A DNA stretch of 32,635 nt from a virus. A program made the translations under genes and the position numbers. The stretch lies in UHGV virus genome UHGV-0186667; one strand, written 5' to 3'. Under the pieces are notes generated by a model. The model was not told the DNA's origin. It made no database searches and saw nothing but the letters and a program-made list of their open reading frames with translations. Below, piece by piece: positions 1,844 through 25,655 of this stretch (its first letter is position 1; every line of letters starts with the position of its first letter).

Positions 1844-1895
1844 TTGACGTATCAAATATTGGATCGTAGTATCTCGATGTATCAAATATTGAATC
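1844..1895. promoter_or_regulatory. Early rightward promoter with two direct-repeat operator copies
   Basis: TTGACG (1844-1849), 17-nt spacer, TAGTAT (1867-1872). Two 17-bp repeats, GTATCAAATATTGGATC (1849-1865) and GTATCAAATATTGAATC (1879-1895), 30 bp apart, each with internal dyad symmetry. Confidence 0.5.
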
Positions 1896-2748: not shown

Positions 2749-2949
2749 ATGCTGACGAAAGAACCATCATTTGCATCGCTGCTGGTAAAGCAAAGCCCGG
2801 CAATGCACTACGGTCACGGCTGGATCATGGGGGAGGATGGAAAACGCTGGCATCCGTGCCGTTCACAAGATGAATTGCTGGCAGAACTATCTACGAAGAA
2901 ACGGGGGAACAAATGGCTATTGAAGGCGCTGCGGCGACTGTTCCATTAA
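2749..2949 (+). CDS. Hypothetical small early protein
   Basis: ORF with ATG at 2749 just after the cII stop; no recognisable motif. Confidence 0.4.
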   Translation: MLTKEPSFASLLVKQSPAMHYGHGWIMGEDGKRWHPCRSQDELLAELSTKKRGNKWLLKALRRLFH

Positions 2950-3254
2950 GCCCCGGTGAACGCCTGAATGGACTTAATCACATTGCGGAGTTAAGGGCGA
3001 AAGTTTTTGGTCTGAATATTGAGTCAGAGCTTGAACGGTTTATTAAAGATATGCGTGATCCACGGGATATTAATAGCGAACAAAATAAACGGGCACTGGC
3101 TGCCATATTCTTTATGGCAAAAATTCCAGCTGAACGTCATAGCATCAGCATTAATGAGCTGACCACTGACGAAAAGCGGGAGTTGATTAAAGCAATGAAT
3201 CATTTTCGTGCAGTGGTGAGCTTATTTCCCAGACGGCTAACCATGCCGAATTAA
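2913..3254 (+). CDS. Hypothetical early protein
   Basis: 113-aa ORF in the early operon overlapping the previous ORF by 37 nt; no recognisable motif. Confidence 0.45.
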   Translation: MAIEGAAATVPLSPGERLNGLNHIAELRAKVFGLNIESELERFIKDMRDPRDINSEQNKRALAAIFFMAKIPAERHSISINELTTDEKRELIKAMNHFRAVVSLFPRRLTMPN

Positions 3255-3321: not shown

Positions 3322-3555
3322 ATGCGTAATATTGAAACCCTCACGACCAAAACCGGACCGGATGACGCAGGGCTTAATATTTTACTGACAGAGGCTCGTC
3401 TGGAAGAACGCCGGGCAAGGGCTGAAGCAATGGCAGCTCGCCTTGATAGCCTGGCGTGTCATATCACATCCCGCCAGCTAAACCACGTCGAAGCGGCAGA
3501 ACTGCTTCGTGTGACTGCTGAAGCAATCCAGAACGAAGCGCAGGAGATCCACTAA
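3322..3555 (+). CDS. Hypothetical early protein
   Basis: ATG at 3322 lies 8 nt after AGGAG (3309-3313); the ORF track begins at an upstream TTG (3316). Confidence 0.45.
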   Translation: MRNIETLTTKTGPDDAGLNILLTEARLEERRARAEAMAARLDSLACHITSRQLNHVEAAELLRVTAEAIQNEAQEIH

Positions 3556-3782
3556 TGGCTGATGCAATGGATCTCGTACAGCAGCGCGTTGAAGAAGAAC
3601 GCCAGCGTCATATCCGTGCTGCCCGTGCCAAAACGCCGGGCGTGTCCCGCGTGCTTTGCATTGAGTGTGAAGCGCCAATTCCGCCAGCACGCCGCCGTGC
3701 CATTCCGGGTGTGCAGCTTTGCATTACCTGTCAGGAAATCGCAGAGCTGAAAGGCAAACATTACAACGGAGGTGCTGTATGA
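3555..3782 (+). CDS. DksA/TraR-family C4 zinc-finger protein
   Basis: 75 aa with a four-cysteine motif CIECEAPIPPARRRAIPGVQLCITCQ, typical of TraR/DksA. Confidence 0.75.
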   Translation: MADAMDLVQQRVEEERQRHIRAARAKTPGVSRVLCIECEAPIPPARRRAIPGVQLCITCQEIAELKGKHYNGGAV

Positions 3783-4636
3783 GCACCATCCTGAAATGGG
3801 CGGGAAATAAAACTGCCATAATGTCAGAACTGAAAAAACACCTTCCTGCTGGCCCGCGACTGGTTGAACCTTTCGCGGGTTCCTGTGCTGTGATGATGGA
3901 GACGGATTACCCCAGCTATCTGGTTGCGGATATTAATCCTGATTTAATCAACCTCTATAAAAAGGTTGCCGCTGATTGTGAATCGTTTATATCGCGCGCC
4001 AGAGTTTTATTTGAGATCGCAAACAGGGAGGTGGCTTATTACAACATAAGGCAGGAGTTTAATTACTCCACTGAAATTACTGATTTCATGAAAGCGGTAT
4101 ATTTCCTGTATCTCAATCGTCACGGTTACCGTGGTTTATGTCGCTATAACAAGAGCGGGCATTTCAACATTCCCTACGGTAATTATAAAAATCCGTATTT
4201 CCCTGAAAAAGAAATTCGCGCATTTGCAGAAAAAGCCCAGCGGGCAACGTTTATCTGCGCCAGCTTTGATGAAACGCTGGCGATGTTGAAGGCGGGAGAT
4301 GTGGTGTATTGCGATCCGCCGTATGACGGCACGTTTTCCGGTTATCACACTGACGGCTTCACTGAAGATGACCAGTATCACCTGGCATCCGTTCTTGAAC
4401 ATCGGTCATCAGAAGGACATCCGGTCATTGTTTCTAACAGTGACACATCCCTGATCCGTTCGCTGTATCGCAATTTTACTCACCACTACATCAAGGCAAA
4501 ACGCAACATCGGTGTGGCAGCTGGCGAGGGTAAATCAGCAACAGAAATCATTGCTGTTTCCGGGCCGCGCTGCTGGGTGGGATTTGATTATTCGCGTAGC
4601 GTGGACAGTTCTGCCGTGTACGGAGTACGTGCATGA
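3779..4636 (+). CDS. dam: DNA adenine methyltransferase (Dam family)
   Basis: N-terminal ILKWAGNK motif, [15 protein letters not shown] block and DPPY catalytic motif (VYCDPPYDG) match E. coli Dam. Start ATG 3779 overlaps the upstream stop (ATGA). Confidence 0.85.
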
Positions 4637-7047
4637 GTCATGCCGATATGAACAACTGCTGCGGCTTTAACGAGGCTGCCGCAGCATTCTCATGGAACAG
4701 CCCGAAAAAAGCCATTAACCCTTATCTGGACCCGGCGGAAGTTGCGCCGGTTTCTGCGCTTTCAAACCTGATCACTCTGTACGCTGCCGATAACGAGCAG
4801 GAACAACTGCGCCGCGAGGCACTGAGTGATCAGGTCTGGGAGCGTTATTTCTTTAATGAATCCCGTGATCCTGTCCAGCGCGAAATGGAGCAGGATAAGC
4901 TAATTAGCCGGGCAAAGCTGGCGCATGAGCAGCAGCGTTTTAACCCGGACATGGTCATTCTGGCAGACGTCAGCGCCCAGCCCTCCCATATCAGCAAGCC
5001 GCTGATGCAACGTATTGAATACTTCAGCAGCCTGGGCAGGCCAAAGGCTTATTCCCGCTATTTACGTGAGACGATTAAGCCATGTCTGGAACGACTGGAG
5101 CATGTACGCGACAGCCAGCTATCTGCATCTTTTCGTTTTATGGCAAGCCATGTAGGGCTGGACGGCCTGCTGATTCTGCCTGAAATGAGTCAGGATCAGG
5201 TGAAACGCCTGTCTACCCTTGTCGCTGCGCATATGAGCATGTGCCTTGATGCAGCTTGTGGTGATTTGTATGCCACCGATGACGTTAAGCCAGAAGAAAT
5301 CCGCAAGACATGGGAAAAGGTGGCAGCGGAAACCCTGCGTCTGGATGTCATCCCGCCTGCGTTTGAGCAACTCCGCCGGAAAAGAAACCGCCGCAAACCT
5401 GTGCCCTATGAACTCATTCCGGGTTCGCTGGCGCGTATGCTGTGCGCCGACTGGTGGTATCGGAAATTATGGAAGATGCGTTGCGAATGGCGGGAAGAGC
5501 AGTTGCGTGCTGTCTGTCTGGTCAGCAAAAAAGCATCTCCCTATGTCAGCTATGAAGCCGTGATGCATAAACGTGAGCAGCGCCGCAAGTCACTGGAGTT
5601 TTTCCGTTCTCATGAACTGGTGAACGAAGAGGGCGACACGCTGGATATGGAAGACGTGGTAAACGCCAGCAGCAGCAACCCGGCGCACCGCCGCAATGAG
5701 ATGATGGCCTGTGTTAAAGGTCTGGAGCTTATCGCGGAAATGCGCGGTGACTGCGCCGTTTTCTACACCATTACCTGTCCGTCACGTTTCCATTCCACGC
5801 TCAATAACGGCAGACCAAACCCAACCTGGACAAATGCGACGGTAAGACAAAGCAGCGATTATCTGGTCGGCATGTTTGCTGCATTTCGTAAGGCGATGCA
5901 CAAAGCCGGGTTGCGCTGGTATGGCGTGCGGGTGGCTGAGCCGCATCATGACGGTACAGTTCACTGGCACCTGTTGTGTTTCATGCGCAAAAAAGACCGC
6001 CGCGCCATTACTGCATTGTTGCGTAAGTTTGCCATCCGTGAAGACCGCGAGGAACTGGGTAATAACACTGGTCCACGCTTTAAATCTGAGCTGATAAACC
6101 CGCGCAAAGGAACGCCGACAAGCTACATCGCGAAATACATCAGTAAGAACATTGACGGGCGTGGTCTGGCTGGCGAGATCAGCAAGGAAACGGGTAAATC
6201 CCTGCGTGATAACGCTGAATACGTTAATGCCTGGGCGTCTCTGCATCGTGTTCAGCAATTCCGCTTCTTTGGTATTCCGGGACGTCAGGCTTACCGTGAA
6301 CTTCGCTTGCTGGCTGGTCAGGCGGCAAGGCAACAGGGTGACAAAAAAGCAGGTGCGCCGGTACTGGATAACCCGCGTCTTGATGCCATTCTGGCTGCTG
6401 CTGATGCTGGTTGTTTTGCCACCTACATCATAAAGCAGGGCGGCGTACTGGTTCCCCGCAAATATCACCTCATCAGAACCGCTTATGAAATCAACGAAGT
6501 GCCAACCGCCTATGGCGATCACGGTATTCGTATTTATGGCATCTGGTCACCCATTGCAGAGGGCAAGATCTGCACTCATGCAGTGAAGTGGAAAATGGTT
6601 CGTAAGGCCGTTGACGTTCAGGAGGCGGCAGCCGACCAGGGCGCTTGCGCCCCTTGGACTCGTGGCAATAACTGTCCCCTTGCTGAAAATTTGTACCAAC
6701 AAGGGAAAGACAAATCAGCTGATGGGGATACCAGAACGGATATTACCCGCATGGATGACAAGGAATTGCACGATTACCTGCACAGTATGAACAAAAAAGA
6801 GCGCCGGGAACTGGCTGCAAGGTTACGCCTGGTGAAACCGAAACGGCGTAAAGACTACAAACAGCGAATTACAGACCATCAGCGACAGCAGCTCGTCTAT
6901 GAACTGAAGTCCAGAGGATTTGATGGCAGCGAGAAAGAGGTCGATTTACTCCTTCGCGGCGGCAGTATTCCGTCAGGAGCAGGCCTGCGTATCTTCTATC
7001 GGAACCAGCGTTTGCAGGAAGATGATAAGTGGCGAAACCTGTATTAA
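4633..7047 (+). CDS. A: Replication initiation protein A (rolling-circle HUH endonuclease)
   Basis: 804 aa. HUH-like motif VHWHLL and paired tyrosines YIAKYISK. Start overlaps the dam stop (ATGA). P2 gene A position. Confidence 0.85.
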
Positions 7048-7139: not shown

Positions 7140-7159
7140 TACTGTAAATATAAACAGTG
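7140..7159. promoter_or_regulatory. LexA box (SOS operator)
   Basis: TACTGTAAATATAAACAGTG contains a perfect CTGT-N8-ACAG with an AT-rich spacer, 43 bp upstream of the ATG at 7200. Confidence 0.7.
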
Positions 7160-7199: not shown

Positions 7200-7388
7200 A
7201 TGCAGGACTATTTTTTGGAGTCTTTGAAGCTCCAGCGCATTGATTTTTTTCTTAAGCTTGTAGCGGCTAGTGAGTGTAGTGATGAAGAGAAGGGGCTGGC
7301 TTTGCAGTGGGTTTCTGAACTAACAGATGAACTCATGGCAAAAATCAGAACCCACGAATACAACCGCTCAATGGATGTCATCAGTTGA
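7200..7388 (+). CDS. Hypothetical small protein, first gene of the SOS-controlled module
   Basis: 62-aa ORF with SD GGAGGA just upstream, directly after the LexA box; position equivalent to 186 tum. Confidence 0.45.
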   Translation: MQDYFLESLKLQRIDFFLKLVAASECSDEEKGLALQWVSELTDELMAKIRTHEYNRSMDVIS

Positions 7389-7399
7389 GGTGACTTTTT

Positions 7400-7633
7400 A
7401 TGCGCATTGAAATAATGATCGATAAAGAGCAGAAGATTAGCCAGTCTACCCTGGACGCCCTTGAATCCGAGCTTTACCGCAATCTGCGTCCTCTGTATCC
7501 CAAAATGGTAATTCGTATCCGCAAAGGTAGCTCTAACGGTGTGGAACTGACCGGATTGCAACTGGACGAAGAAAGAAAACAAGTGATGAAAATTATGCAG
7601 AAGGTGTGGGAAGACGACAGCTGGCTGCATTAA
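7400..7633 (+). CDS. DinI-family protein
   Basis: 77 aa. MRIEIMIDK...LDALESEL...VWEDDSWLH aligns by eye with E. coli DinI (MRIEVTIAK...IDALAGEL...TWESADDWF). Confidence 0.75.
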   Translation: MRIEIMIDKEQKISQSTLDALESELYRNLRPLYPKMVIRIRKGSSNGVELTGLQLDEERKQVMKIMQKVWEDDSWLH

Positions 7634-7903
7634 GAAACGTTGCTGGCGTCTGAACTTGCTTCTGGCGTCAGCAAGGTTGAACAACGAGCTATGCGAGGCG
7701 TTAGTGTCAATTTGTTACCTTAACCACTATATATGCCAGGAAATTAACAGTTCTTAAGAAACAGCTTGCATGATCGAGCGCATTGAACTTAAGTTTAAGT
7801 AACGCAATCAACAGATGATATTGTTGTCTAAATTTTAAAGATAATCTGTTGAGGTTGTAGGCGTCGGAGTGTAGACTTCCGCGCCATGTGAAAAGGGGGA
7901 GTT

Positions 7904-8119
7904 ATGTCAAGCATCGCCGCATTTAGCCTGGGTAACCCAGTTGAACGTCTGGCAAGGGTTCTTAAAGAGAACCAGGACAAACTCAATCTTAGTAAAGATG
8001 GTTTTGTGTCCGTAGACTTGTCTAACAAAAGAGCAATGGATGCCATCAAGGCACAGATGGATAAGCTTGAAGGCATCAAAACGAGCACTGTAAAAGAGAA
8101 AACTAATAGAACCAGATAA
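7904..8119 (+). CDS. Hypothetical small soluble protein, first gene of a two-gene cargo operon
   Basis: 71-aa ORF with strong SD AAGGGGGAG 4 nt upstream; its stop overlaps the next start (TAATG). No recognisable family. Confidence 0.5.
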   Translation: MSSIAAFSLGNPVERLARVLKENQDKLNLSKDGFVSVDLSNKRAMDAIKAQMDKLEGIKTSTVKEKTNRTR

Positions 8120-8961
8120 TGGCAACATTACTTTTAGCAGTGATTTTGGTTAGTGGTTTTATTTATGTAAACCTATCACTTTCAACAAGATACCGATATA
8201 AGCGTTCCAACGGCTGGGACGCTTATTTTTTTGTGGCTGCCTGGGGTATCGTTTTTTTTCTCCTTGGCGGTTTTTTCACCTTTATTTTGAACGTCAGCGG
8301 AGGGTTTCGTTGGCTGGCTAATGCCTTGAATCTAACACCTGACAGTTTTAATGGCATGTTGTCTTCATCGAAAGACAAACTTCAAAGAATAAATGAAATC
8401 AAACAGATAGCATGGGTTATGATTTCAATTGTCCTCGCTGCGATTTCAGGTTTTGGAAATAAGTTACGCACATCACGTGGAGATCGTCGTTGGGATGCCT
8501 TAGCTAAAGCTGTGGGTAATAACGCTTTCGAATCATTACTCATGGAAGCGTCCGCAAGACAGTTTCCGATCATAGCAACTCTGTCGTCTCGCAAAATCTA
8601 TGTTGGTCTTGTTACTTGTCCGGCGTTAGAAAACGGGCTTTCAGAGCACCTTGAACTTCTCCCGATGTTAAGCGGATATCGGGATAAAGATGATCTAACG
8701 ATTAGTATCACGACTAACTATCACCAACATTATCTTGATAGTGGTGTGATAAGTGGAATGTCTCGGCTTAATATCGAAGATTTCCGTGTGCTCATACCAA
8801 AAGATGAGGTTGAAACAATTTCGTTTTTTGATACTGAGACATATAACAAATTTAAAGAAAATGAAGCCAGGGATAGAAAGAACTGTCGAAAGATTGATAG
8901 TAAAAGTGCATCTTCGCGCAGCAAGCGTGCAGCAGATGCTGAGTCAAATGATCGTGCATGA
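8119..8961 (+). CDS. Hypothetical membrane protein with three predicted TM helices and a soluble C-terminal domain
   Basis: 280 aa. Hydrophobic segments at about aa 3-19, 35-57 and 96-112; C-terminal ~170 aa soluble with a basic tail. Visibly AT-rich compared with phage core genes. Confidence 0.6.
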   Translation: MATLLLAVILVSGFIYVNLSLSTRYRYKRSNGWDAYFFVAAWGIVFFLLGGFFTFILNVSGGFRWLANALNLTPDSFNGMLSSSKDKLQRINEIKQIAWVMISIVLAAISGFGNKLRTSRGDRRWDALAKAVGNNAFESLLMEASARQFPIIATLSSRKIYVGLVTCPALENGLSEHLELLPMLSGYRDKDDLTISITTNYHQHYLDSGVISGMSRLNIEDFRVLIPKDEVETISFFDTETYNKFKENEARDRKNCRKIDSKSASSRSKRAADAESNDRA

Positions 8962-9078
8962 CTATGCTGCATGAGATCGCATGATCGTTTGAGGATCGTT
9001 TTTGCTAGGGCCCGCCAGAACTGGCGGGCTTTCGCGTAGATCATGCACCTGCATGAAAACTACTACATAAAGCGGGCA

Positions 9079-9097
9079 GGCGTGGCGGGGATACGAG
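9079..9097. other. Candidate cos (cohesive-end) site
   Basis: GGCGTGGCGGGGATACGAG shares its first 13 nt with the 19-nt cohesive end of phage 186 as I remember it (GGCGTGGCGGGGAAAGCAT). Lies between hairpins and a 16-bp palindrome. Confidence 0.3.
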
Positions 9098-9198
9098 CGC
9101 GCGCAACAGTGTAACAATCTGGATCTAATGTGATATAGTTACTGTAAATATTATTAACTATTCTTATATGCATTATTAAATATTTTAATGGAGCGTTT

Positions 9199-10872
9199 AT
9201 GGAAAAATATCAAGATGAGGAATATGTAGATGATTTAACTGAGCGTGTTTTTCTCATTAAGCAACAACTGGAAGCGGGAAAACTAAAAATAGCTCATCAT
9301 CTTGTAGAAGGTTTTATTGAAAGTTTTAAAAGAATAAGGCTGCGACAGGATGGTAAAGTTGACCCTTCTACTGTTGATGGCAGAATAAGGGCTATGGGAG
9401 CAGCGGTTAATCACTTTTTAGAAAGAGAAGATATAAAAAACAAATACTCTATTCAGGACTTGCAAAGTTCTTACTTTAATATTCTTTTTAGTAATTTTGG
9501 CGAGTTGTTTTATCTGATGAAAAAAACTAATGCAACGCCACATAAAGCATCAAGTTTTTTTTCTCAACAAGAAGAATATGTTAAGCAAATAGAAGATATT
9601 TTTCCTGAGTTATATAATCAGGTAATAGAGTTTTGGCAGGTAACATCCGATATTGGTGTAATACATTTGCAGGATGGTTCTCAGTTTAAAGCTAATTTTT
9701 CTGGTGACTTATTTCCTGCATTTGATGAGAATGCTGTCTCTATTGCAGGGTTGTATGTTGATACTATTTCACTTCCATGTCCTATATTAAGAGTCGGTCG
9801 TCTCTATGAAAAGTCAGATAAGGCTGAGTTTACAAGGATACTTCTGAAGCATGTCCTAACATGTATGACATATAAAGAAGTAGCGCTTGAAGATATAGAG
9901 CCAGCAATAGTATTAATTTTGCCGGATAGAAGAGATTTTGAAACTGAGAGCAAAAAAAATTTGATGAGTTTTTGTGAGCCTTATGCTCTGACTCATGCGC
10001 AATATCTCTATGATCGACGGTTCGAAAGCTACGATGAATTTCGAGATTTTAGTTATTCGATGAATGATATTGATGCTGTTCTTAAAAATATTAAGAGAGC
10101 AGATAGACTTATTTTTGATACAGCATGGGGGCTAAATCCAAAAACTCAATTAGAAAAACTACTATCTGATAAAAAAAGAATATCACGTAATGTTGTTGGT
10201 GATCATGCTGGAATGGAGGTTTTCCTTTCCTGCATTGGAAGAATGCCGCAAGCCTATTCAGCAAAATGTAATGCACAAGAACTTGGTAGTACTCCATATA
10301 TAAATGCAGACACATCTTGGCTCTATTATACTTGGCTTATTGAGTACGAATCTCTTAATTTTGATGTCAATGATATTGAACTAAAAAATTTGCATATGGT
10401 TCATGCGTTATCTGCTGGTATGCAAGATGGTTTTTCATGGTTAGGAAATGTACCGGTCAATAAAATAATTGAGTTGAGACGTAACAAATTGATGGAGGAT
10501 GTAAGATCCATCTTATCAAATGGTGTTGACTCTTTAATCAATTCTTCGGCAGAGAGCTTTTCGAGGACAACGCAAAAAGTAATTGATAATGTAGACCGGG
10601 CTTTTATTGAACATCAAAGGATTCTTGCAAAAGCCCAAAAAGAGAAATTGAGAATTTACGGACTAGATGTCCTACCATGTATCGCAAATGGTGCTATAGC
10701 AATTGCTGGAGCGCTGACTGGCAATACTACTTTAACGGCGTTAAGTGCAGGCCTTGGAGTAATAGGTATTCCGAGTATTAGTGATATCAAATCTAAATTT
10801 AAGCAGAGGCAAGAGAAGCTTGATGCCTATCAACGTTCTGTTACAGGTATACTCTTTAGCCATAAATCTTAA
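9199..10872 (+). CDS. Hypothetical 557-aa cargo protein with C-terminal hydrophobic Gly/Ala-rich segment
   Basis: Long uninterrupted ORF, strongly AT-rich, SD GGAG 5 nt upstream. No Walker A, no YxDD, no recognisable catalytic motif. C-terminal stretch IANGAIAIAGALTGNTTLTALSAGLGVIGIPSI looks membrane-inserting. Confidence 0.7.
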   Translation: MEKYQDEEYVDDLTERVFLIKQQLEAGKLKIAHHLVEGFIESFKRIRLRQDGKVDPSTVDGRIRAMGAAVNHFLEREDIKNKYSIQDLQSSYFNILFSNFGELFYLMKKTNATPHKASSFFSQQEEYVKQIEDIFPELYNQVIEFWQVTSDIGVIHLQDGSQFKANFSGDLFPAFDENAVSIAGLYVDTISLPCPILRVGRLYEKSDKAEFTRILLKHVLTCMTYKEVALEDIEPAIVLILPDRRDFETESKKNLMSFCEPYALTHAQYLYDRRFESYDEFRDFSYSMNDIDAVLKNIKRADRLIFDTAWGLNPKTQLEKLLSDKKRISRNVVGDHAGMEVFLSCIGRMPQAYSAKCNAQELGSTPYINADTSWLYYTWLIEYESLNFDVNDIELKNLHMVHALSAGMQDGFSWLGNVPVNKIIELRRNKLMEDVRSILSNGVDSLINSSAESFSRTTQKVIDNVDRAFIEHQRILAKAQKEKLRIYGLDVLPCIANGAIAIAGALTGNTTLTALSAGLGVIGIPSISDIKSKFKQRQEKLDAYQRSVTGILFSHKS

Positions 10873-10878
10873 TGTAGA

Positions 10879-10907
10879 GGGCCGAGGTATTCGGCCCTTA
10901 GTTTTAT
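10879..10907. terminator. Hairpin terminator between the 557-aa gene and the portal gene
   Basis: GGGCCGA (10879-10885), loop GGTAT, TCGGCCC (10891-10897), then TTAGTTTTAT. The T-tract overlaps the portal stop codon. Confidence 0.45.
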
Positions 10908-22144: not shown

Positions 22145-23544
22145 GCACAAAATTTTATACCCTGCTGACGGATATTGGCGCGGAGAAACTTGCCAGCGCC
22201 GCCGCGCTCGGTGTGCCGCTAAAAATTACCCATATGGCGGTGGGCGATGGTGGCGGAACATTGCCGACGCCGGACGCAAAGCAGAGTGCACTGGTAAATG
22301 AGAAACGTCGGGCTGCGCTGAATATGCTCTATATCGACCCACAGAACAGCAGCCAGATTATTGCTGAACAGGTGATCCCTGAAAACGAGGGCGGTTGGTG
22401 GATACGTGAAGTGGGCCTGTTTGATGAATCCGGGGCATTGATTGCCGTGGGAAACTGCCCGGAAAGCTATAAGCCGCAACTGGCTGAAGGTAGCGGGCGC
22501 ACTCAGACCGTGCGCATGGTGCTGATTACCAGCAGCACGGACAATATCACCCTGAAAATCGACCCTGCTGTAGTGCTGGCAACCCGCAAGTATGTGGATG
22601 ACAAGGCACTGGAGCTGAAGGTGTACGCGGATGATCAGATGGCAAAACATCTTGCCGCACCGGACCCGCATTCACAGTATGCACCCAAAGAAAGTCCGAC
22701 GTTTACCGGGACACCCAAAGCGCCAACGCCAGCAGCAGGGAATAACACCACGCAGATTGCGACCACCGCGTTTGTTCAGGCGGCTCTGACGGCTCTTATT
22801 AATGGTGCGCCAGCCACGCTGGACACGCTGAAAGAAATAGCCGCAGCCATTAACAATGATCCGAAATTCAGTACCACCATTAACAATGCACTGGCACTGA
22901 AAGCGCCGCTGTCGAGTCCGGCACTCACCGGAACGCCAACCGCACCTACTGCGGCACAGTCGGTCAACAATACACAGATTGCCACCACGGCATTTGTGAA
23001 ATCGGCGATTGCGGCAATGGTGGGTTCTGCACCTGCGGCACTGGATACACTCAACGAACTGGCGGCGGCACTGGGGAATGACCCGAACTTTGCCACGACA
23101 ATGCTTAATGCACTGGCAGGTAAACAACCGCTGGACAATACGCTGACTAATTTGAGTGGAAAGGATGTAGCTGGTCTTCTCACATACCTTGGTTTGGGAG
23201 AAGCAGCGAAAATGCCTGCTGCGACAGCATTAGCCAGCAGTGCAGGTAACATCACTATTCCAGTATTAATTGGTGGAGTACAACGAACAGCATTGCTTCA
23301 GTGGAAGACGCTATCAGTGCCGCAATCTACCGACGGTAATATGGTCGTTGTTGATGGCTCATGGCCGGTTGCCTTTCCTAATGCTTGCCTTTCCATCAAT
23401 CCTTCGCTGGTCAATTCTGTGATCTACGCGACTAATGGAGCCCCTTTTGTTAGCGCAGCGATTGTTGACCGGGTCAAATTCAAAGCCGCTTGCGCATACA
23501 CGAAATCTAATTCAACAGTGGCAGTATGGGGAGTGGGATATTAA
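22141..23544 (+). CDS. H: Tail fibre protein H; the C-terminal ~118 aa lie inside the invertible segment
   Basis: N-terminus resembles P2 H (MAVGDGGG) and later blocks (NDPNFATTMLNALAGKQP) match P2 H repeats. The crossover site sits at codons YLGLGE. Confidence 0.8.
   Translation: MSTKFYTLLTDIGAEKLASAAALGVPLKITHMAVGDGGGTLPTPDAKQSALVNEKRRAALNMLYIDPQNSSQIIAEQVIPENEGGWWIREVGLFDESGALIAVGNCPESYKPQLAEGSGRTQTVRMVLITSSTDNITLKIDPAVVLATRKYVDDKALELKVYADDQMAKHLAAPDPHSQYAPKESPTFTGTPKAPTPAAGNNTTQIATTAFVQAALTALINGAPATLDTLKEIAAAINNDPKFSTTINNALALKAPLSSPALTGTPTAPTAAQSVNNTQIATTAFVKSAIAAMVGSAPAALDTLNELAAALGNDPNFATTMLNALAGKQPLDNTLTNLSGKDVAGLLTYLGLGEAAKMPAATALASSAGNITIPVLIGGVQRTALLQWKTLSVPQSTDGNMVVVDGSWPVAFPNACLSINPSLVNSVIYATNGAPFVSAAIVDRVKFKAACAYTKSNSTVAVWGVGY
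23177..23202. repeat. Inversion crossover site (gix/hix-like), left
   Basis: TTCTCACATACCTTGGTTTGGGAGAA: two 12-bp half-sites around a central dinucleotide. Its right 14 nt are an exact inverted copy of the start of the site at 25008. Confidence 0.7.
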
Positions 23545-23987
23545 TGGTCGACTATGTATTCAGCCCGACGGAAAATGCTTTTTATCTTGTGGCACTGAAA
23601 TATGATTATTTAACTGCTGGCACATGGCCGTCAGACGGCATCAATATAAATGCTGAAGATGCACTGGTTTTCATGGGAAACGCTCCTGAGGGTAAAATGC
23701 GTGGCATTGGTGATGATGGGTTGCCTTGCTGGGTAGATCTTCCGTCACCTACGCATAAAGAACAACTTGCTGCGGCTGACTCAGAGAAAAAGTCGAGAAT
23801 TGACCATGCCAACGAATACATGAACGGTAAGCAATGGCCTGGTAAAGCAGCTATCGGTCGTCTGAAAGGTGAGGAACTGGCACAATATAATTTGTGGCTG
23901 GATTATCTGGACGCACTGGAGCTGATCGATACTTCCGGTGCGCCAGATATTGAATGGCCTACGCCTCCGGCAGTTCAGGCCAGATGA
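23526..23987 (+). CDS. G: Tail fibre assembly protein (chaperone for the current orientation)
   Basis: 153 aa with C-terminal motif LDYLDAL...WPTPP typical of tail-fibre assembly proteins. Confidence 0.75.
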   Translation: MGSGILMVDYVFSPTENAFYLVALKYDYLTAGTWPSDGININAEDALVFMGNAPEGKMRGIGDDGLPCWVDLPSPTHKEQLAAADSEKKSRIDHANEYMNGKQWPGKAAIGRLKGEELAQYNLWLDYLDALELIDTSGAPDIEWPTPPAVQAR

Positions 23988-24561
23988 CATCCGGCGCTGT
24001 GCTGGTATCTGTTGCCGTCACCGCGTCAATGTAATCCAGCACAGCGTTAAGGCGGATTGTTTCTGCCTGCGTCAGCTTCCGTCCGGCCTGTAATTTCAGT
24101 TGAATCAGACTGATGGAGGCCATTGCAGTATCAATCAGCAACGGGCGCTGTGCTTCTGCTGCATCTACTGCTGCGCCGTGCTGTGCCTCGGTATCTGTCA
24201 CCCATTTCTCACCATTCCATTCATCGTATGGCGTTAACGGGGCGATAGTGGTTGTATTTTCAGGATAATCACCCGGAGCTGTGATTTCTTTCGATTCTCC
24301 TGTTTCGGTGCTATAGACGATTTCACCGCGATGATCTGGCACATATTCCCATGAATTTAAATTCACAGAACGACAGATTGCATAACCAACCTTATGTATG
24401 CCAGGTGCATCAAGACAGGAACATGCCGGAATACCGACACCAACAGCAAGATATTCAGTTGACGTGGAAATATATTCCCGTGTTTCACCATCGTAGTTAT
24501 AAACGGTAACATCCCCTGCCTTTGTTGCAATAAGCTCACTATTTAATATTGCTTTATGCAT
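23959..24561 (-). CDS. Alternative tail fibre assembly protein (for the inverted orientation)
   Basis: 200 aa on the minus strand with C-terminal motif LDYIDAV...WPELP; convergent with G and overlapping it by 29 nt. Confidence 0.7.
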   Translation of the reverse strand: MHKAILNSELIATKAGDVTVYNYDGETREYISTSTEYLAVGVGIPACSCLDAPGIHKVGYAICRSVNLNSWEYVPDHRGEIVYSTETGESKEITAPGDYPENTTTIAPLTPYDEWNGEKWVTDTEAQHGAAVDAAEAQRPLLIDTAMASISLIQLKLQAGRKLTQAETIRLNAVLDYIDAVTATDTSTAPDVIWPELPEA

Positions 24562-25021
24562 CAGGCTGCCCTCACGATATAGTTAAATGCAATATTACGC
24601 GGACGGTTTTCGTTTGCAGTTGGAACAACTCTGGAAGCATCAAATGTTACTCGCTTTGCATAACCACCTTTAATTGAATCAGATGAAGCATCTCCGATGA
24701 CGCTGGTTGTAAAAGCACCAGAATCAGAAGGATAGGTATTAAACCTGACATCCACTAATGCACCAATTATATTTCGAATGGCATCGCCCTGTGATGAAAG
24801 CAAGCTACGGTTAGTATCAATTCCTCTTCCGTCATCCCAGCCGCGAATAAACTCACCACGTAAATCAGGCAATTTATTTGTCGGGTAAACTTTTGCCAGT
24901 TCCGGGTATTCTTCAGCAGAAAAAGCCGCACCATTGCATTTCAGCCAGCCTGTTGGCGGAGTGGCTGAAGGCCACGGAACAGGGACACCAACAGGTAATG
25001 CAGAGCCTTCTCCCAAACCAA
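24561..25021 (-). CDS. Alternative tail fibre C-terminal exon, fused to H only after inversion
   Basis: Minus-strand frame reads GLGEGSALPVG... through the crossover site, the same GLGE junction as in H. An in-frame ATG exists at 25061, outside the segment. Confidence 0.6.
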
Positions 25022-25033
25022 CGTTTATGAAAA
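25008..25033. repeat. Inversion crossover site (gix/hix-like), right
   Basis: TTCTCCCAAACCAACGTTTATGAAAA; its first 14 nt are the exact reverse complement of the right end of the site at 23177. Confidence 0.7.
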
Positions 25034-25082
25034 TGCAGAGATAACGGCTAACTGGCATCATCTCCGGTTTTTATTCAGGGGG

Positions 25083-25655
25083 ATGATCATGCTTATTGGC
25101 TATGTACGCGTGTCAACAAATGACCAGAACACCGATTTGCAACGCAATGCACTGAACTGTGCGGGATGTGAGCGGATTTTTGAGGATAAAATCAGTGGCA
25201 CCAAGTCCGACAGACCGGGGCTGAAAAAGCTGCTCAGGACACTATCGGCAGGAGACACGCTGGTTGTCTGGAAGCTGGACAGACTGGGGCGCAGTATGCG
25301 GCATCTTGTTACGCTGATAGAAGAGCTGCGCCAGCGTGGCGTGAATTTCCGAAGCCTGACTGACAGTATTGATACCAGCACCCCAATGGGCCGTTTCTTT
25401 TTTCATGTCATGGGTGCCCTGGCTGAAATGGAACGCGAACTGATAGTTGAACGTACCAGGGCGGGGCTGGCTGCAGCTCGTGCTAAAGGCAGAGTAGGTG
25501 GACGCCGTCCTAAGTTGACCAGCGAACAGTGGGCACAGATTGGGCGTTTACTCGAGGCCGGAGAATCAAGACAGCGTATTGCACTGATTTTTGATGTAGG
25601 CGTTTCTACCATTTATCGAAAATTTCCGGCAAATAAGAACAATAAATCTCCCTGA
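25083..25655 (+). CDS. Serine DNA invertase (Gin/Hin/Cin/Pin family)
   Basis: Near-identical to Mu Gin over most of its length (LIGYVRVSTNDQNTDLQRNAL, VVWKLDRLGRSM, MGRFFFHVMGALAEMERELI). True start may be ATG 25089. Confidence 0.9.
   Translation: MIMLIGYVRVSTNDQNTDLQRNALNCAGCERIFEDKISGTKSDRPGLKKLLRTLSAGDTLVVWKLDRLGRSMRHLVTLIEELRQRGVNFRSLTDSIDTSTPMGRFFFHVMGALAEMERELIVERTRAGLAAARAKGRVGGRRPKLTSEQWAQIGRLLEAGESRQRIALIFDVGVSTIYRKFPANKNNKSP

Follow-up and report, generated by a model that had tools for sequence, protein, structure and literature searches.

Previously, a TraR-type zinc-finger protein of phage P2, Orf82, was found to occupy the DksA site on RNA polymerase, to inhibit rrnB P1 with an IC50 of 250 nM and to complement a dksA deletion (PMC9239242). 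The same work reported that lambda Orf73 requires D3 and D6, and that P2 Orf82, in which A8 is absent, is active but about five times weaker than TraR (PMC9239242). A second group of relevant systems is formed by P1 Dmt, T4/T2 Dam, HP1 Dam and VT-2/933W Dam, which are orphan GATC methyltransferases of phages with Dam+ hosts. It is an old question why a Dam gene should be present in phages whose enterobacterial hosts are themselves Dam+, and the literature describes the in vivo role of phage-encoded Dam as poorly understood (PMC7556043; PMC12707154). In addition, the database record of phage 186 states that the replication gene A is translated only if the ORF upstream of it is translated through to its end.

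Here, we analysed a stretch of 32,635 nucleotides (UHGV virus genome UHGV-0186667, hereafter the window, to which all coordinates refer), which is a Peduoviridae (P2/186-like) prophage of E. coli. The int and CI genes lie on the minus strand and are followed on the plus strand by apl/cox-like, CII, Fil, DUF5347, DUF2732, TraR, Dam and A genes, an order that agrees with the early lytic operons of 186 and P2. The DUF2732 gene (3322..3555, plus strand; PF10809, E = 3e-29) likely starts at ATG 3322 behind AGGAG, the mechanically called ORF beginning at TTG 3316. It bounds the accessory block on the left as a conserved anchor, and its homologues are annotated at the equivalent place in Cartapus, P2 (Orf80) and 186. 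Downstream of it on the same strand are the genes for a TraR/DksA-family C4 zinc-finger protein of 75 aa (3555..3782, from ATG 3555 to TGA 3782; PF01258), a Dam-family (D12 class) methyltransferase of 285 aa (3779..4636; PF02086 and TIGR00571) and the replication initiator/nickase A of 804 aa (4633..7047; PF05840 Phage_GPA, E = 2e-127). All of these family matches lie well outside what chance would produce. Neighbouring genes overlap at all three junctions, by TAATG at 3553-3557 (DUF2732/zinc finger) and by ATGA at 3779-3782 (zinc finger/Dam) and 4633-4636 (Dam/A). An earlier note on this DNA had described a full-length Dam with an intact DPPY motif directly before gene A, with stop/start overlaps at either end and a TraR-like zinc finger preceding it, and both the ORFs and their coordinates confirm this description.

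The same note had placed the two genes in the early operon, with which the gene context agrees. A predicted sigma-70 promoter resembling pR (TTGACG-17-TAGTAT; 1844..1872, plus strand), recognized by a consensus scan and by its position equivalent to 186 pR, sits in the interval that separates the apl/cox-like gene from the divergently oriented CI gene. The promoter scan gave no plus-strand promoter-like site between this promoter and A. An internal promoter for Dam was also considered and rejected, as the sole strong match (4209-4182) is antisense and the region contains 3 hits, fewer than the 7.7 of shuffled sequences; we took this match to be due to chance. Together with the 186/P2 gene order, these observations support the early-operon placement of both genes. 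Our main reading, to which we assign a probability of roughly 0.8, is that the zinc-finger gene and Dam are independent accessory genes of early lytic growth, one encoding a TraR/Orf82-type factor and the other a GATC-type methylase with a probable protective benefit.

The zinc-finger protein matched PF01258 zf-dskA_traR (E = 3.1e-11; 43.5 bits, cutoff 24.9), the TraR family model TIGR02419 (65.8 bits, cutoff 59.7) and phrog_54 (1.4e-30), and its matches in PDB were YbiI (5e-11) and TraR (3e-9), although it falls below the equivalog cutoffs for both F TraR and YbiI. It has no DksA coiled coil and carries a C4 zinc-binding motif formed by C35/C38/C56/C59 (CxxC-N17-CxxC). Sequence identity is 68% to the 186 protein and 39% to F TraR. 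The N-terminal DxxDxA motif of this family extends to the active site of RNA polymerase; its residues D3 and D6 are invariant in five aligned homologues, whereas position 8 is occupied by Val in the window protein, by Ile in Orf82 and by Ala in both the 186 protein and TraR. TraR-family proteins consist of an N-terminal helix, a globular zinc domain and a C-terminal helix; a single-sequence AlphaFold model of low confidence (mean pLDDT 68) contains helices at residues 5-25 and 57-66 with a non-helical middle; a Foldseek search of PDB with this model found no match at E <= 1e-3, the best being YbiI (E = 7e-3). P2 Orf82, the 186 DksA-like protein, lambda Orf73 and F TraR are, like the window protein, about 75 aa long with a C4 zinc finger and D3/D6, and in P2 and 186 the gene likewise follows DUF2732 within the early lytic operon. 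The assignment as a TraR/Orf82-type RNA polymerase-binding factor is well supported by these sequence similarities, on which we relied in place of the structure model. The experiments on Orf82 (PMC9239242) bear out the proposal in the earlier note that RNA polymerase is the target of TraR-like proteins, as the window protein shares 46% identity and the conserved D3/D6 with Orf82.

For Dam, the real start is ATG 3779 and the stop is TGA 4634-4636; this start was preferred over the TTG 3719 of the mechanical ORF because GGAGG precedes it and because it agrees with the annotated 858-nt Cartapus homologue. The protein covers the whole PF02086 MethyltransfD12 profile (positions 1-253 of 253; E = 1.2e-76, 258 bits against 22), scores 320.9 bits with the TIGR00571 'dam' model (cutoff 114.85) and has an orphan methyltransferase as its best PADLOC model (5e-111). 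Its relatives of solved structure are E. coli Dam (5e-73, 46% identity), DpnM and T4 Dam, all of which are GATC enzymes. With NF008152, the NCBIfam equivalog for chromosomal Dam, it scored 286.3 bits, below the cutoff of 441. Judged by its sequence, the window Dam is a member of a phage lineage of the family and not a host housekeeping Dam. Catalytic motif IV is an intact DPPY (D179-P180-P181-Y182, nt 4313-4324). In motif I (F32-A-G34-S-C36), the Phe and the first Gly of FxGxG are present and the second Gly is replaced by Cys; this Cys is fixed in 69 full-length relatives and occurs also in the Gegavirus and ev015 Dams. T4 Dam likewise lacks the second Gly of this motif.

Residues of E. coli Dam that read GATC include K9, Y119, N120, L122, R124, P134 and Y138 (PMC4417163). 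Six of these seven are kept in the window Dam (K6, Y117, L120, R122, P132 and Y136), the exception being N120, which is replaced by R118. It is therefore well supported, from sequence comparison, that the protein is an orphan D12-class (alpha) N6-adenine methyltransferase with GATC as its predicted target, and it is the specificity for GATC that we infer from these contacts. A relaxed specificity, or one other than strict GATC, would make the enzyme a broader anti-restriction methylase. Such specificity is known for some prophage adenine methylases (PMC7556043), M.EcoGII being another listed case, and the replacement by R118 is fixed both in the window Dam lineage and in the Gegavirus homologue. 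On the other hand, the known relaxed enzymes fall in other families, the window Dam is 46% identical to E. coli Dam over its full length, and the residues that recognize the C:G pair (R122, equivalent to E. coli R124), the T:A pair (L120/P132) and the first pair (K6/Y136) are all conserved. We thus consider a relaxed specificity very improbable. A Type II restriction-modification system was also rejected, as there is no endonuclease gene: the neighbours of Dam are the zinc-finger gene and A, and their codons overlap with no space between them.

Conservation among relatives was then used to evaluate whether Dam is maintained. An intact copy is present in 77 of 79 close IMG/VR relatives, and the pN/pS of Dam is 0.165, compared with those of gene A (0.085) and DUF2732 (0.116). 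Of the 69 full-length relatives, 67 show no change at any catalytic or DNA-contact residue, the exceptions being one R122C and one P181L allele; because of the latter, DPPY itself is invariant in 68/69. These sequence data indicate that Dam is under purifying selection. Disruption of Dam in close relatives, which the earlier note had named as evidence against its proposal, is thus not the pattern observed.

Both junctions of Dam were examined for RNA structure. At the TraR/Dam junction, a hairpin is predicted at 3768..3791 (plus strand), with the Dam Shine-Dalgarno sequence GGAGG (3768-3772) in its 5' arm and the Dam AUG and TraR stop in its loop. The folded segment (3735-3835) has an energy of -29.6 kcal/mol (z = -4.25) and none of 200 shuffled sequences was equally stable; this predicted structure fits translational coupling. 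The Dam/A junction has a small predicted hairpin at 4615..4635 (plus strand), in which the last Dam codons pair with the A start codon (AUG 4633-4635); it is a local 8-bp stem, but the 121-nt segment around it is not unusually stable in the RNA fold (z = -0.29), and we gave this hairpin no weight. Among 309 related loci in which an ORF was called upstream of A, this ORF overlaps the A start in 242 and stops no more than 4 nt away from it in 46 others, irrespective of the gene. Dam is probably translationally coupled to gene A.

Another possibility is that Dam is neutral or selfish cargo that fills the slot before A and is retained only since some ORF has to be translated up to the A start. The 186 record mentioned above, the absence of Dam from P2 and 186, and the unrelated genes that hold this slot in other clades, the last of them nearly always overlapping A, would fit such a role. 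However, purifying selection acts over the whole Dam protein (pN/pS 0.165), the catalytic and DNA-contact residues are invariant in nearly all full-length relatives (67/69), and a mere spacer ORF has no need of an intact DPPY. Neutral cargo is therefore an improbable explanation, and we retain the reading in which Dam is a functional accessory gene.

To place Dam in the context of its neighbours, the slot was compared across four clades (315 related loci) and in annotated genomes. What lies immediately before A is variable. At least three Dam lineages occur there (72%, 49% and 39% identical to the window Dam), and other occupants include Dcm, a PAPS-reductase-like protein, a DGQHR-domain protein, ASCH/DUF3850 proteins and an RNase T-like exonuclease. 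A DpdA-like (queuine tRNA-ribosyltransferase-like) protein was also found in the slot, and no deazaguanine synthesis genes were called in the same slot. The last slot gene almost always overlaps the A start codon. GC content drops to 0.40-0.45 at Dam, compared with 0.53-0.58 in the flanks, and this dip, together with the varied occupants, points to Dam as cargo. The comparison also disposed of the idea that TraR and Dam form a functional pair: TraR is present and Dam absent in the 186/P2 clades, the ev015 clade shows the reverse, and each thus occurs independently of the other.

We tentatively propose, while regarding it as somewhat less likely to be true than false, that the position 5' of A in Peduoviridae is a dedicated, translationally coupled slot that has repeatedly captured DNA-modification or anti-restriction enzymes, Dam being one occupant. 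If so, the supply of the carried DNA-modifying enzyme would be tied to the synthesis of the replication initiator, and the slot could be mined for new anti-defence genes. The pattern could also guide searches for anti-restriction cargo in P2-like prophages. A description of this slot was not found in the literature searched, which is weak evidence of novelty.

With regard to function, the timing of expression can be proposed from the operon structure. In the lysogen, CI would repress pR and both genes would be silent; upon induction they would be switched on together with replication. The N-terminal helix of the zinc-finger protein, bearing D3 and D6, may then enter the secondary channel of host RNA polymerase, where the protein would act independently of ppGpp to inhibit rRNA and ribosomal-protein promoters and to activate some others. 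Through the host promoters that are inhibited or activated, host transcription would be reprogrammed in lytic growth. Dam would add an N6-methyl group to the adenine of GATC. Its reading frame is locked by the 4-nt ATGA overlaps to the zinc-finger gene and to gene A, and it would therefore be made together with the nickase that initiates rolling-circle replication. It could thus fully methylate the phage DNA, with its 109 GATC sites in the window, during fast replication and independently of limiting host Dam, and methylated progeny DNA may be protected from restriction of the MboI/DpnII type or GATC cleavage by MutH, and from SeqA binding. Of the benefits that Dam could bring, full methylation of phage DNA is the likeliest. 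The roles suggested in the earlier note, namely anti-restriction or an alteration of GATC-dependent host processes, are reasonable as proposals. A literature search on the lineage of the window Dam found no experiment, and one on Fels-2 STM2730 gave a single microarray mention. The known hosts of these phages (Escherichia, Klebsiella and Salmonella) are all Dam+; hence a protective role needs the added assumption that host Dam is limiting.

An alternative is that Dam acts mainly as a regulator and not as a shield. Over-methylation of GATC during lytic growth would then alter phage or host expression, for example at the GATC of the pR spacer/operator repeat, and could also abolish the hemimethylated state read by SeqA and MutH; host replication control and mismatch repair would be disabled, which might favour phage replication and recombination. 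The pR-like promoter indeed has a GATC at 1862-1865, located in its spacer and forming part of one of two 17-nt repeats, and this GATC is kept in all 12 relatives of this immunity type. Several Salmonella prophages have their excision or expression controlled by host Dam (PMC7380047), and P1 packaging needs Dam methylation at pac (PMC12707154). However, conservation of Dam does not track this promoter, as only 12 of the 80 relatives with the same Dam share the promoter sequence, and the prophage copy is already methylated by the host. The number of GATC sites in the window (109) equals the expectation (108.9), with neither avoidance nor enrichment, and none lies within about 70 bp of the ori-like sequence GGGCGCTTGCGCCCCTTGGACTCGTGGCAATAACTGT inside gene A (about 6641-6677), which was recognized by its likeness to the annotated P2 and 186 nick sites. 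In view of this expected frequency and the lack of sites at ori, the sequence bears no signature that would mark out a specific regulatory target. A mainly regulatory Dam therefore seems unlikely to us as a whole, its effects on expression and on the hemimethylated state included, although it deserves more weight than relaxed specificity or neutral cargo, and the protective accessory methylase remains our preferred reading.

Compared with known systems, the locus is not unusual. Cartapus (Elveevirus), Salmonella phage RE2010, Klebsiella phage KP12 and E. coli prophages share the order DUF2732, DksA-like zinc finger, Dam and gpA with the window, at 96.6-98.6% nucleotide identity over the block. 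There is no difference of substance between the window and the Cartapus/RE2010/KP12 module, and the window is another copy of it. Both genes are named by PGAP in 1241 of 5426 complete E. coli genomes (about 23%); the earlier note had mentioned neither this routine annotation nor the independence of the two genes. They are real, intact and under selection, but ordinary and already known; since annotation pipelines recognize both routinely and the P2 TraR-type protein has been characterized biochemically, their presence here by itself matters little. On the other hand, the module is convenient for testing the question of phage Dam, because of its presence in about 23% of complete E. coli genomes, the purifying selection on it and the genetic tractability of the P2/186-type phage that carries it.

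E. coli Dam (PDB 2G1P and others) is of the same length class as the window Dam, with 46% identity over 267 residues. The window Dam differs in a 22-residue C-terminal tail that runs into gene A, in the FAGSC form of motif I and in R118, and it is phage-borne and under lytic control, whereas E. coli Dam is constitutive. Among the phage enzymes, the corresponding region of P1 Dmt is 35.5% identical to the window Dam, and T4 Dam is much more distant (E = 5e-18). The Dam genes of P1, T4/T2, HP1 and VT-2/933W differ from that of the window in genome position. P1 Dmt has a known role in packaging through pac methylation (PMC12707154), but a GATC-rich target of that sort was not seen in the window. 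A further parallel comes from the leading regions of plasmids, in which an orphan methylase is likewise expressed first after activation of the element, beside DNA-modification or anti-defence cargo (PMC11541004). Those elements are conjugative leading regions, whereas the window locus is a phage early operon with a putative anti-restriction function.

The window is a P2/186-like prophage, in which minus-strand genes for an integrase (172-1197) and a 186-type CI repressor (1199-1831) are followed on the plus strand by an apl/cox-like gene (1951-2199), CII (2232-2741), Fil (between CII and DUF5347), DUF5347 (2913-3254), DUF2732 (3322-3555), a TraR/DksA-family zinc-finger protein (3555-3782), a Dam-family methylase (Dam, 3779-4636) and replication gene A (4633-7047), with portal, terminase, capsid and tail genes downstream of A. 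From DUF2732 to A the successive junctions read TAATG, ATGA and ATGA, and a Shine-Dalgarno sequence lies 7-8 nt 5' of the ATG in each gene of this block. The interval proposed in the earlier note, 3555-4636, runs from the exact zinc-finger start to the exact Dam stop. The mechanical start of the Dam ORF is TTG 3719; ATG 3779 is the real start, as the alignment with E. coli Dam runs from residue 4 and the annotated homologue in phage Cartapus is 858 nt long.

The earlier assignment of this gene to the Dam family, with an intact DPPY motif, was borne out: the protein covered the entire PF02086 profile (E = 1.2e-76), scored 320.9 bits against TIGR00571 'dam' (cutoff 114.85) and carries DPPY at D179-Y182. 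'Orphan methyltransferase' was its top PADLOC model, and the nearest solved structures were E. coli Dam (E = 5e-73, 46% identity), DpnM and T4 Dam, all of which are GATC enzymes. In E. coli Dam, K9 and Y138 contact the first base pair, Y119 intercalates, N120, L122 and P134 contact the third pair and R124 the fourth (PMC4417163). The counterparts here are K6, Y136, Y117, R118, L120, P132 and R122 (same order as K9, Y138, Y119, N120, L122, P134, R124), so that six of the seven are shared and N120 to R118 is the sole difference. The score against the chromosomal Dam equivalog was below its cutoff (286 vs 441 bits), so the protein is a phage lineage of the family rather than a copy of the host gene.

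The TraR-like zinc finger expected ahead of Dam was also recovered, with matches to PF01258 (3e-11), phrog_54 'DksA-like zinc-finger protein' (1.4e-30) and, above cutoff, TIGR02419 'phage/conjugal plasmid TraR family'. Sequence matches in the PDB were YbiI and TraR in RNA polymerase complexes; a structure modelled from the sequence alone showed the anticipated layout of helix, zinc domain and helix, but its confidence was low and no fold match reached significance. The protein is 68% identical to its 186 counterpart, 46% to P2 Orf82 and 39% to F TraR, and the alignment with its homologues shows no variation at M1, D3, D6, any of the four cysteines or the KHY at the C-terminus. P2 Orf82 has been purified and shown to compete with DksA for RNA polymerase and to inhibit rrnB P1 without ppGpp (IC50 250 nM); it also complements a dksA deletion, and lambda Orf73 requires D3 and D6 (PMC9239242). 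Position 8 of the DxxDxA motif is Val in the window protein; P2 Orf82 likewise lacks A8 (Ile in our alignment), to which its lower activity was tied by the authors (PMC9239242).

The feature is not new, and its annotation is routine. Many deposited phages of Klebsiella, Escherichia and Salmonella share the 1.4-kb block at 96.6-98.6% identity and already annotate Dam or DNA adenine methylase and a DksA-like zinc-finger protein. The 1082-bp feature occurs in 1241 of 5426 complete E. coli genomes, where PGAP labels the genes 'DNA adenine methylase' and 'TraR/DksA family transcriptional regulator'. Disruption of the ORF in close relatives had been named as one observation that would speak against the earlier note. 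We compared 79 IMG/VR loci that encode a zinc-finger protein of at least 99% identity and extend over the Dam region; the Dam ORF was intact (282-285 aa) in 77 of them. The pN/pS of Dam was 0.165, compared with 0.116 for DUF2732, 0.085 for gene A and 0.013 for the zinc finger, the last value being biased because the loci were picked by that protein. This check therefore did not count against the earlier note; overall, its observation is confirmed and its interpretation supported. The two exceptions are a frameshift (L024, 5225-6075) and an altered C-terminus (L058, 5225-6092); among 69 full-length copies, R122C and P181L each occurred in one. R122 is the residue reading the C:G pair and P181L turns DPPY into DPLY; all four alleles are rare and probably inactive.

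The layout matches the early lytic operons of 186 (pR) and P2 (Pe), both repressed in the lysogen, and we infer early lytic expression and translational coupling of the block. A pR-like promoter was predicted at 1844-1872, and a promoter scan found no plus-strand promoter-like sites between it and A. At the zinc-finger/Dam junction, a predicted hairpin (z = -4.25) holds the Dam Shine-Dalgarno sequence in its 5' arm and the AUG in its loop; the small stem predicted over the A start codon is statistically not unusual. According to the 186 record, A is translated only when ribosomes read the upstream ORF through to its end. An ORF was called 5' of A in 309 related loci; it runs into the A start in 242 of these and ends no more than 4 nt from it in 46 others, irrespective of the gene. 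The promoter region (1845-1900) also holds a pair of 17-nt direct repeats, TATCAAATATTGGATCG and TATCAAATATTGAATCT, which are probably operator elements. The first has a GATC in the spacer immediately 5' of the -10 hexamer; GGATC in the first and GAATC in the second are kept in 12/12 relatives of the same immunity type, which only 12 of 80 relatives share.

With regard to the role of Dam, the window contains 109 GATC sites against 108.9 expected, and none was found near the ori-like sequence inside A, which was placed at about 6641-6677 because it resembles the nick sites annotated in P2 and 186. We favour the explanation that Dam would ensure full methylation of fast-replicating phage DNA without reliance on limiting host Dam, given that phage DNA from dam+ cells is under-methylated and given the company Dam keeps before gene A. 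The literature assigns a defined role, in pac methylation, to the Dam of P1 alone and calls that of other phage Dams unclear (PMC7556043, PMC12707154).

Five GATC sites fall within 93 bp at 8950-9042 (the average is one per ~300 bp). They flank a GC-rich hairpin (9010-9029) that resembles a terminator and sits where ORF 8119-8961 ends, and short repeats, CATGAGATCGCATGATCG among them, accompany it. The cluster could represent a scar of recombination or an element sensitive to Dam/SeqA, and it lies in a cargo island (7650-10900) between the DinI-like and portal genes, the old/tin position of P2, with ORFs of 71 aa (7904-8119, phrog_9843), 280 aa (8119-8961, phrog_3630, unknown function) and 557 aa (9199-10872, GC 0.32-0.36). 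The last matched nothing in Pfam, NCBIfam or the PDB, and its one PADLOC match, to DitB (7e-10), was weak. The island has no counterpart in the otherwise near-identical UTAK-18 prophage. Just 1 of 5426 E. coli genomes has it complete, and it matches E. coli strain 210221272 at 100% identity; it may represent an anti-phage system not yet characterised. Upstream of a 62-aa ORF (7200-7388) and a DinI-family gene (7400-7633) lies a perfect LexA-box-like sequence, CTGTAAATATAAACAG (7142-7157), and the resemblance to the SOS-controlled p95/tum operon of 186 suggests SOS-inducible derepression. The tail-fibre segment (23177-25655) is likely invertible: 27-nt inverted repeats with 85% complementarity (23177-23203 and 25007-25033) enclose the 3' portion of the tail-fibre gene, the opposite strand carries an ORF with a tail-collar domain (24561-25061) along with two genes for tail-fibre assembly, and a Hin/Gin/Cin-type serine invertase gene adjoins (25083-25655, Resolvase 2e-53).

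The sole element that looks new is the comparative picture of a cargo slot 5' of gene A, which is suggestive. We surveyed the best 80 matches to each of four queries, namely the zinc finger of the window type and gene A from 186, from P2 and from phage ev015, with ORFs between DUF2732 and A tiled and called mechanically. In this biased sample, the window clade had TraR-Dam (55 loci), TraR-ASCH/DUF3850-Dam (15, or 17 counting DpdA-carrying and IS1-interrupted loci), Dam with a PAPS-reductase-like protein (4), Dam with a 276-aa DpdA-like protein (phrog_887 'queuine tRNA-ribosyltransferase'; 4) and an IS1 insertion (1). The 186 clade had TraR with combinations of RNase T-like exonuclease, DUF5405, ASCH, PAPS-reductase-like and DpdA-like proteins and lacked Dam; the ev015 clade had Dam (49% identical) in about 71 of 77 loci, lacked TraR and at one locus had a protein with a DGQHR motif, as read from sequence; the P2 clade had DUF5405-TraR-DUF5405. 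A functional pairing of TraR and Dam was therefore rejected, as TraR occurs without Dam in the 186 and P2 clades and Dam without TraR in the ev015 clade. GC content drops to 0.40-0.45 in the 5' two-thirds of Dam (3750-4350), compared with 0.56-0.58 in the zinc-finger gene and 0.53-0.55 in A, consistent with acquired cargo. Together, the clade architectures and this dip suggest that Dam is cargo in a slot often holding DNA-modification genes.

Slot contents vary in close and distant Peduoviridae and include a 100-aa DUF3850/ASCH protein, the 276-aa DpdA-like protein, a 336-aa PAPS-reductase-like protein, an IS1 insertion, a 380-aa protein in which a DGQHR motif was read and a Dcm (occupants at L004 1560-1862, L019 4773-5603, L027 4790-5800, L022 5225-6300, L303 2636-3778 and L084 4377-5300). 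The DpdA-like protein had no Pfam match, and no deazaguanine synthesis genes were called in the same slot. Several of these occupants suggest further DNA modifications in P2-like phages. Annotated genomes fit this picture: the slot of Salmonella phage SW5 holds Dam (39% identical), a 75-aa ORF and Dcm, that of Gegavirus TraR and Dam (72%), and that of ev015 exonuclease, ASCH and Dam, each followed by A.
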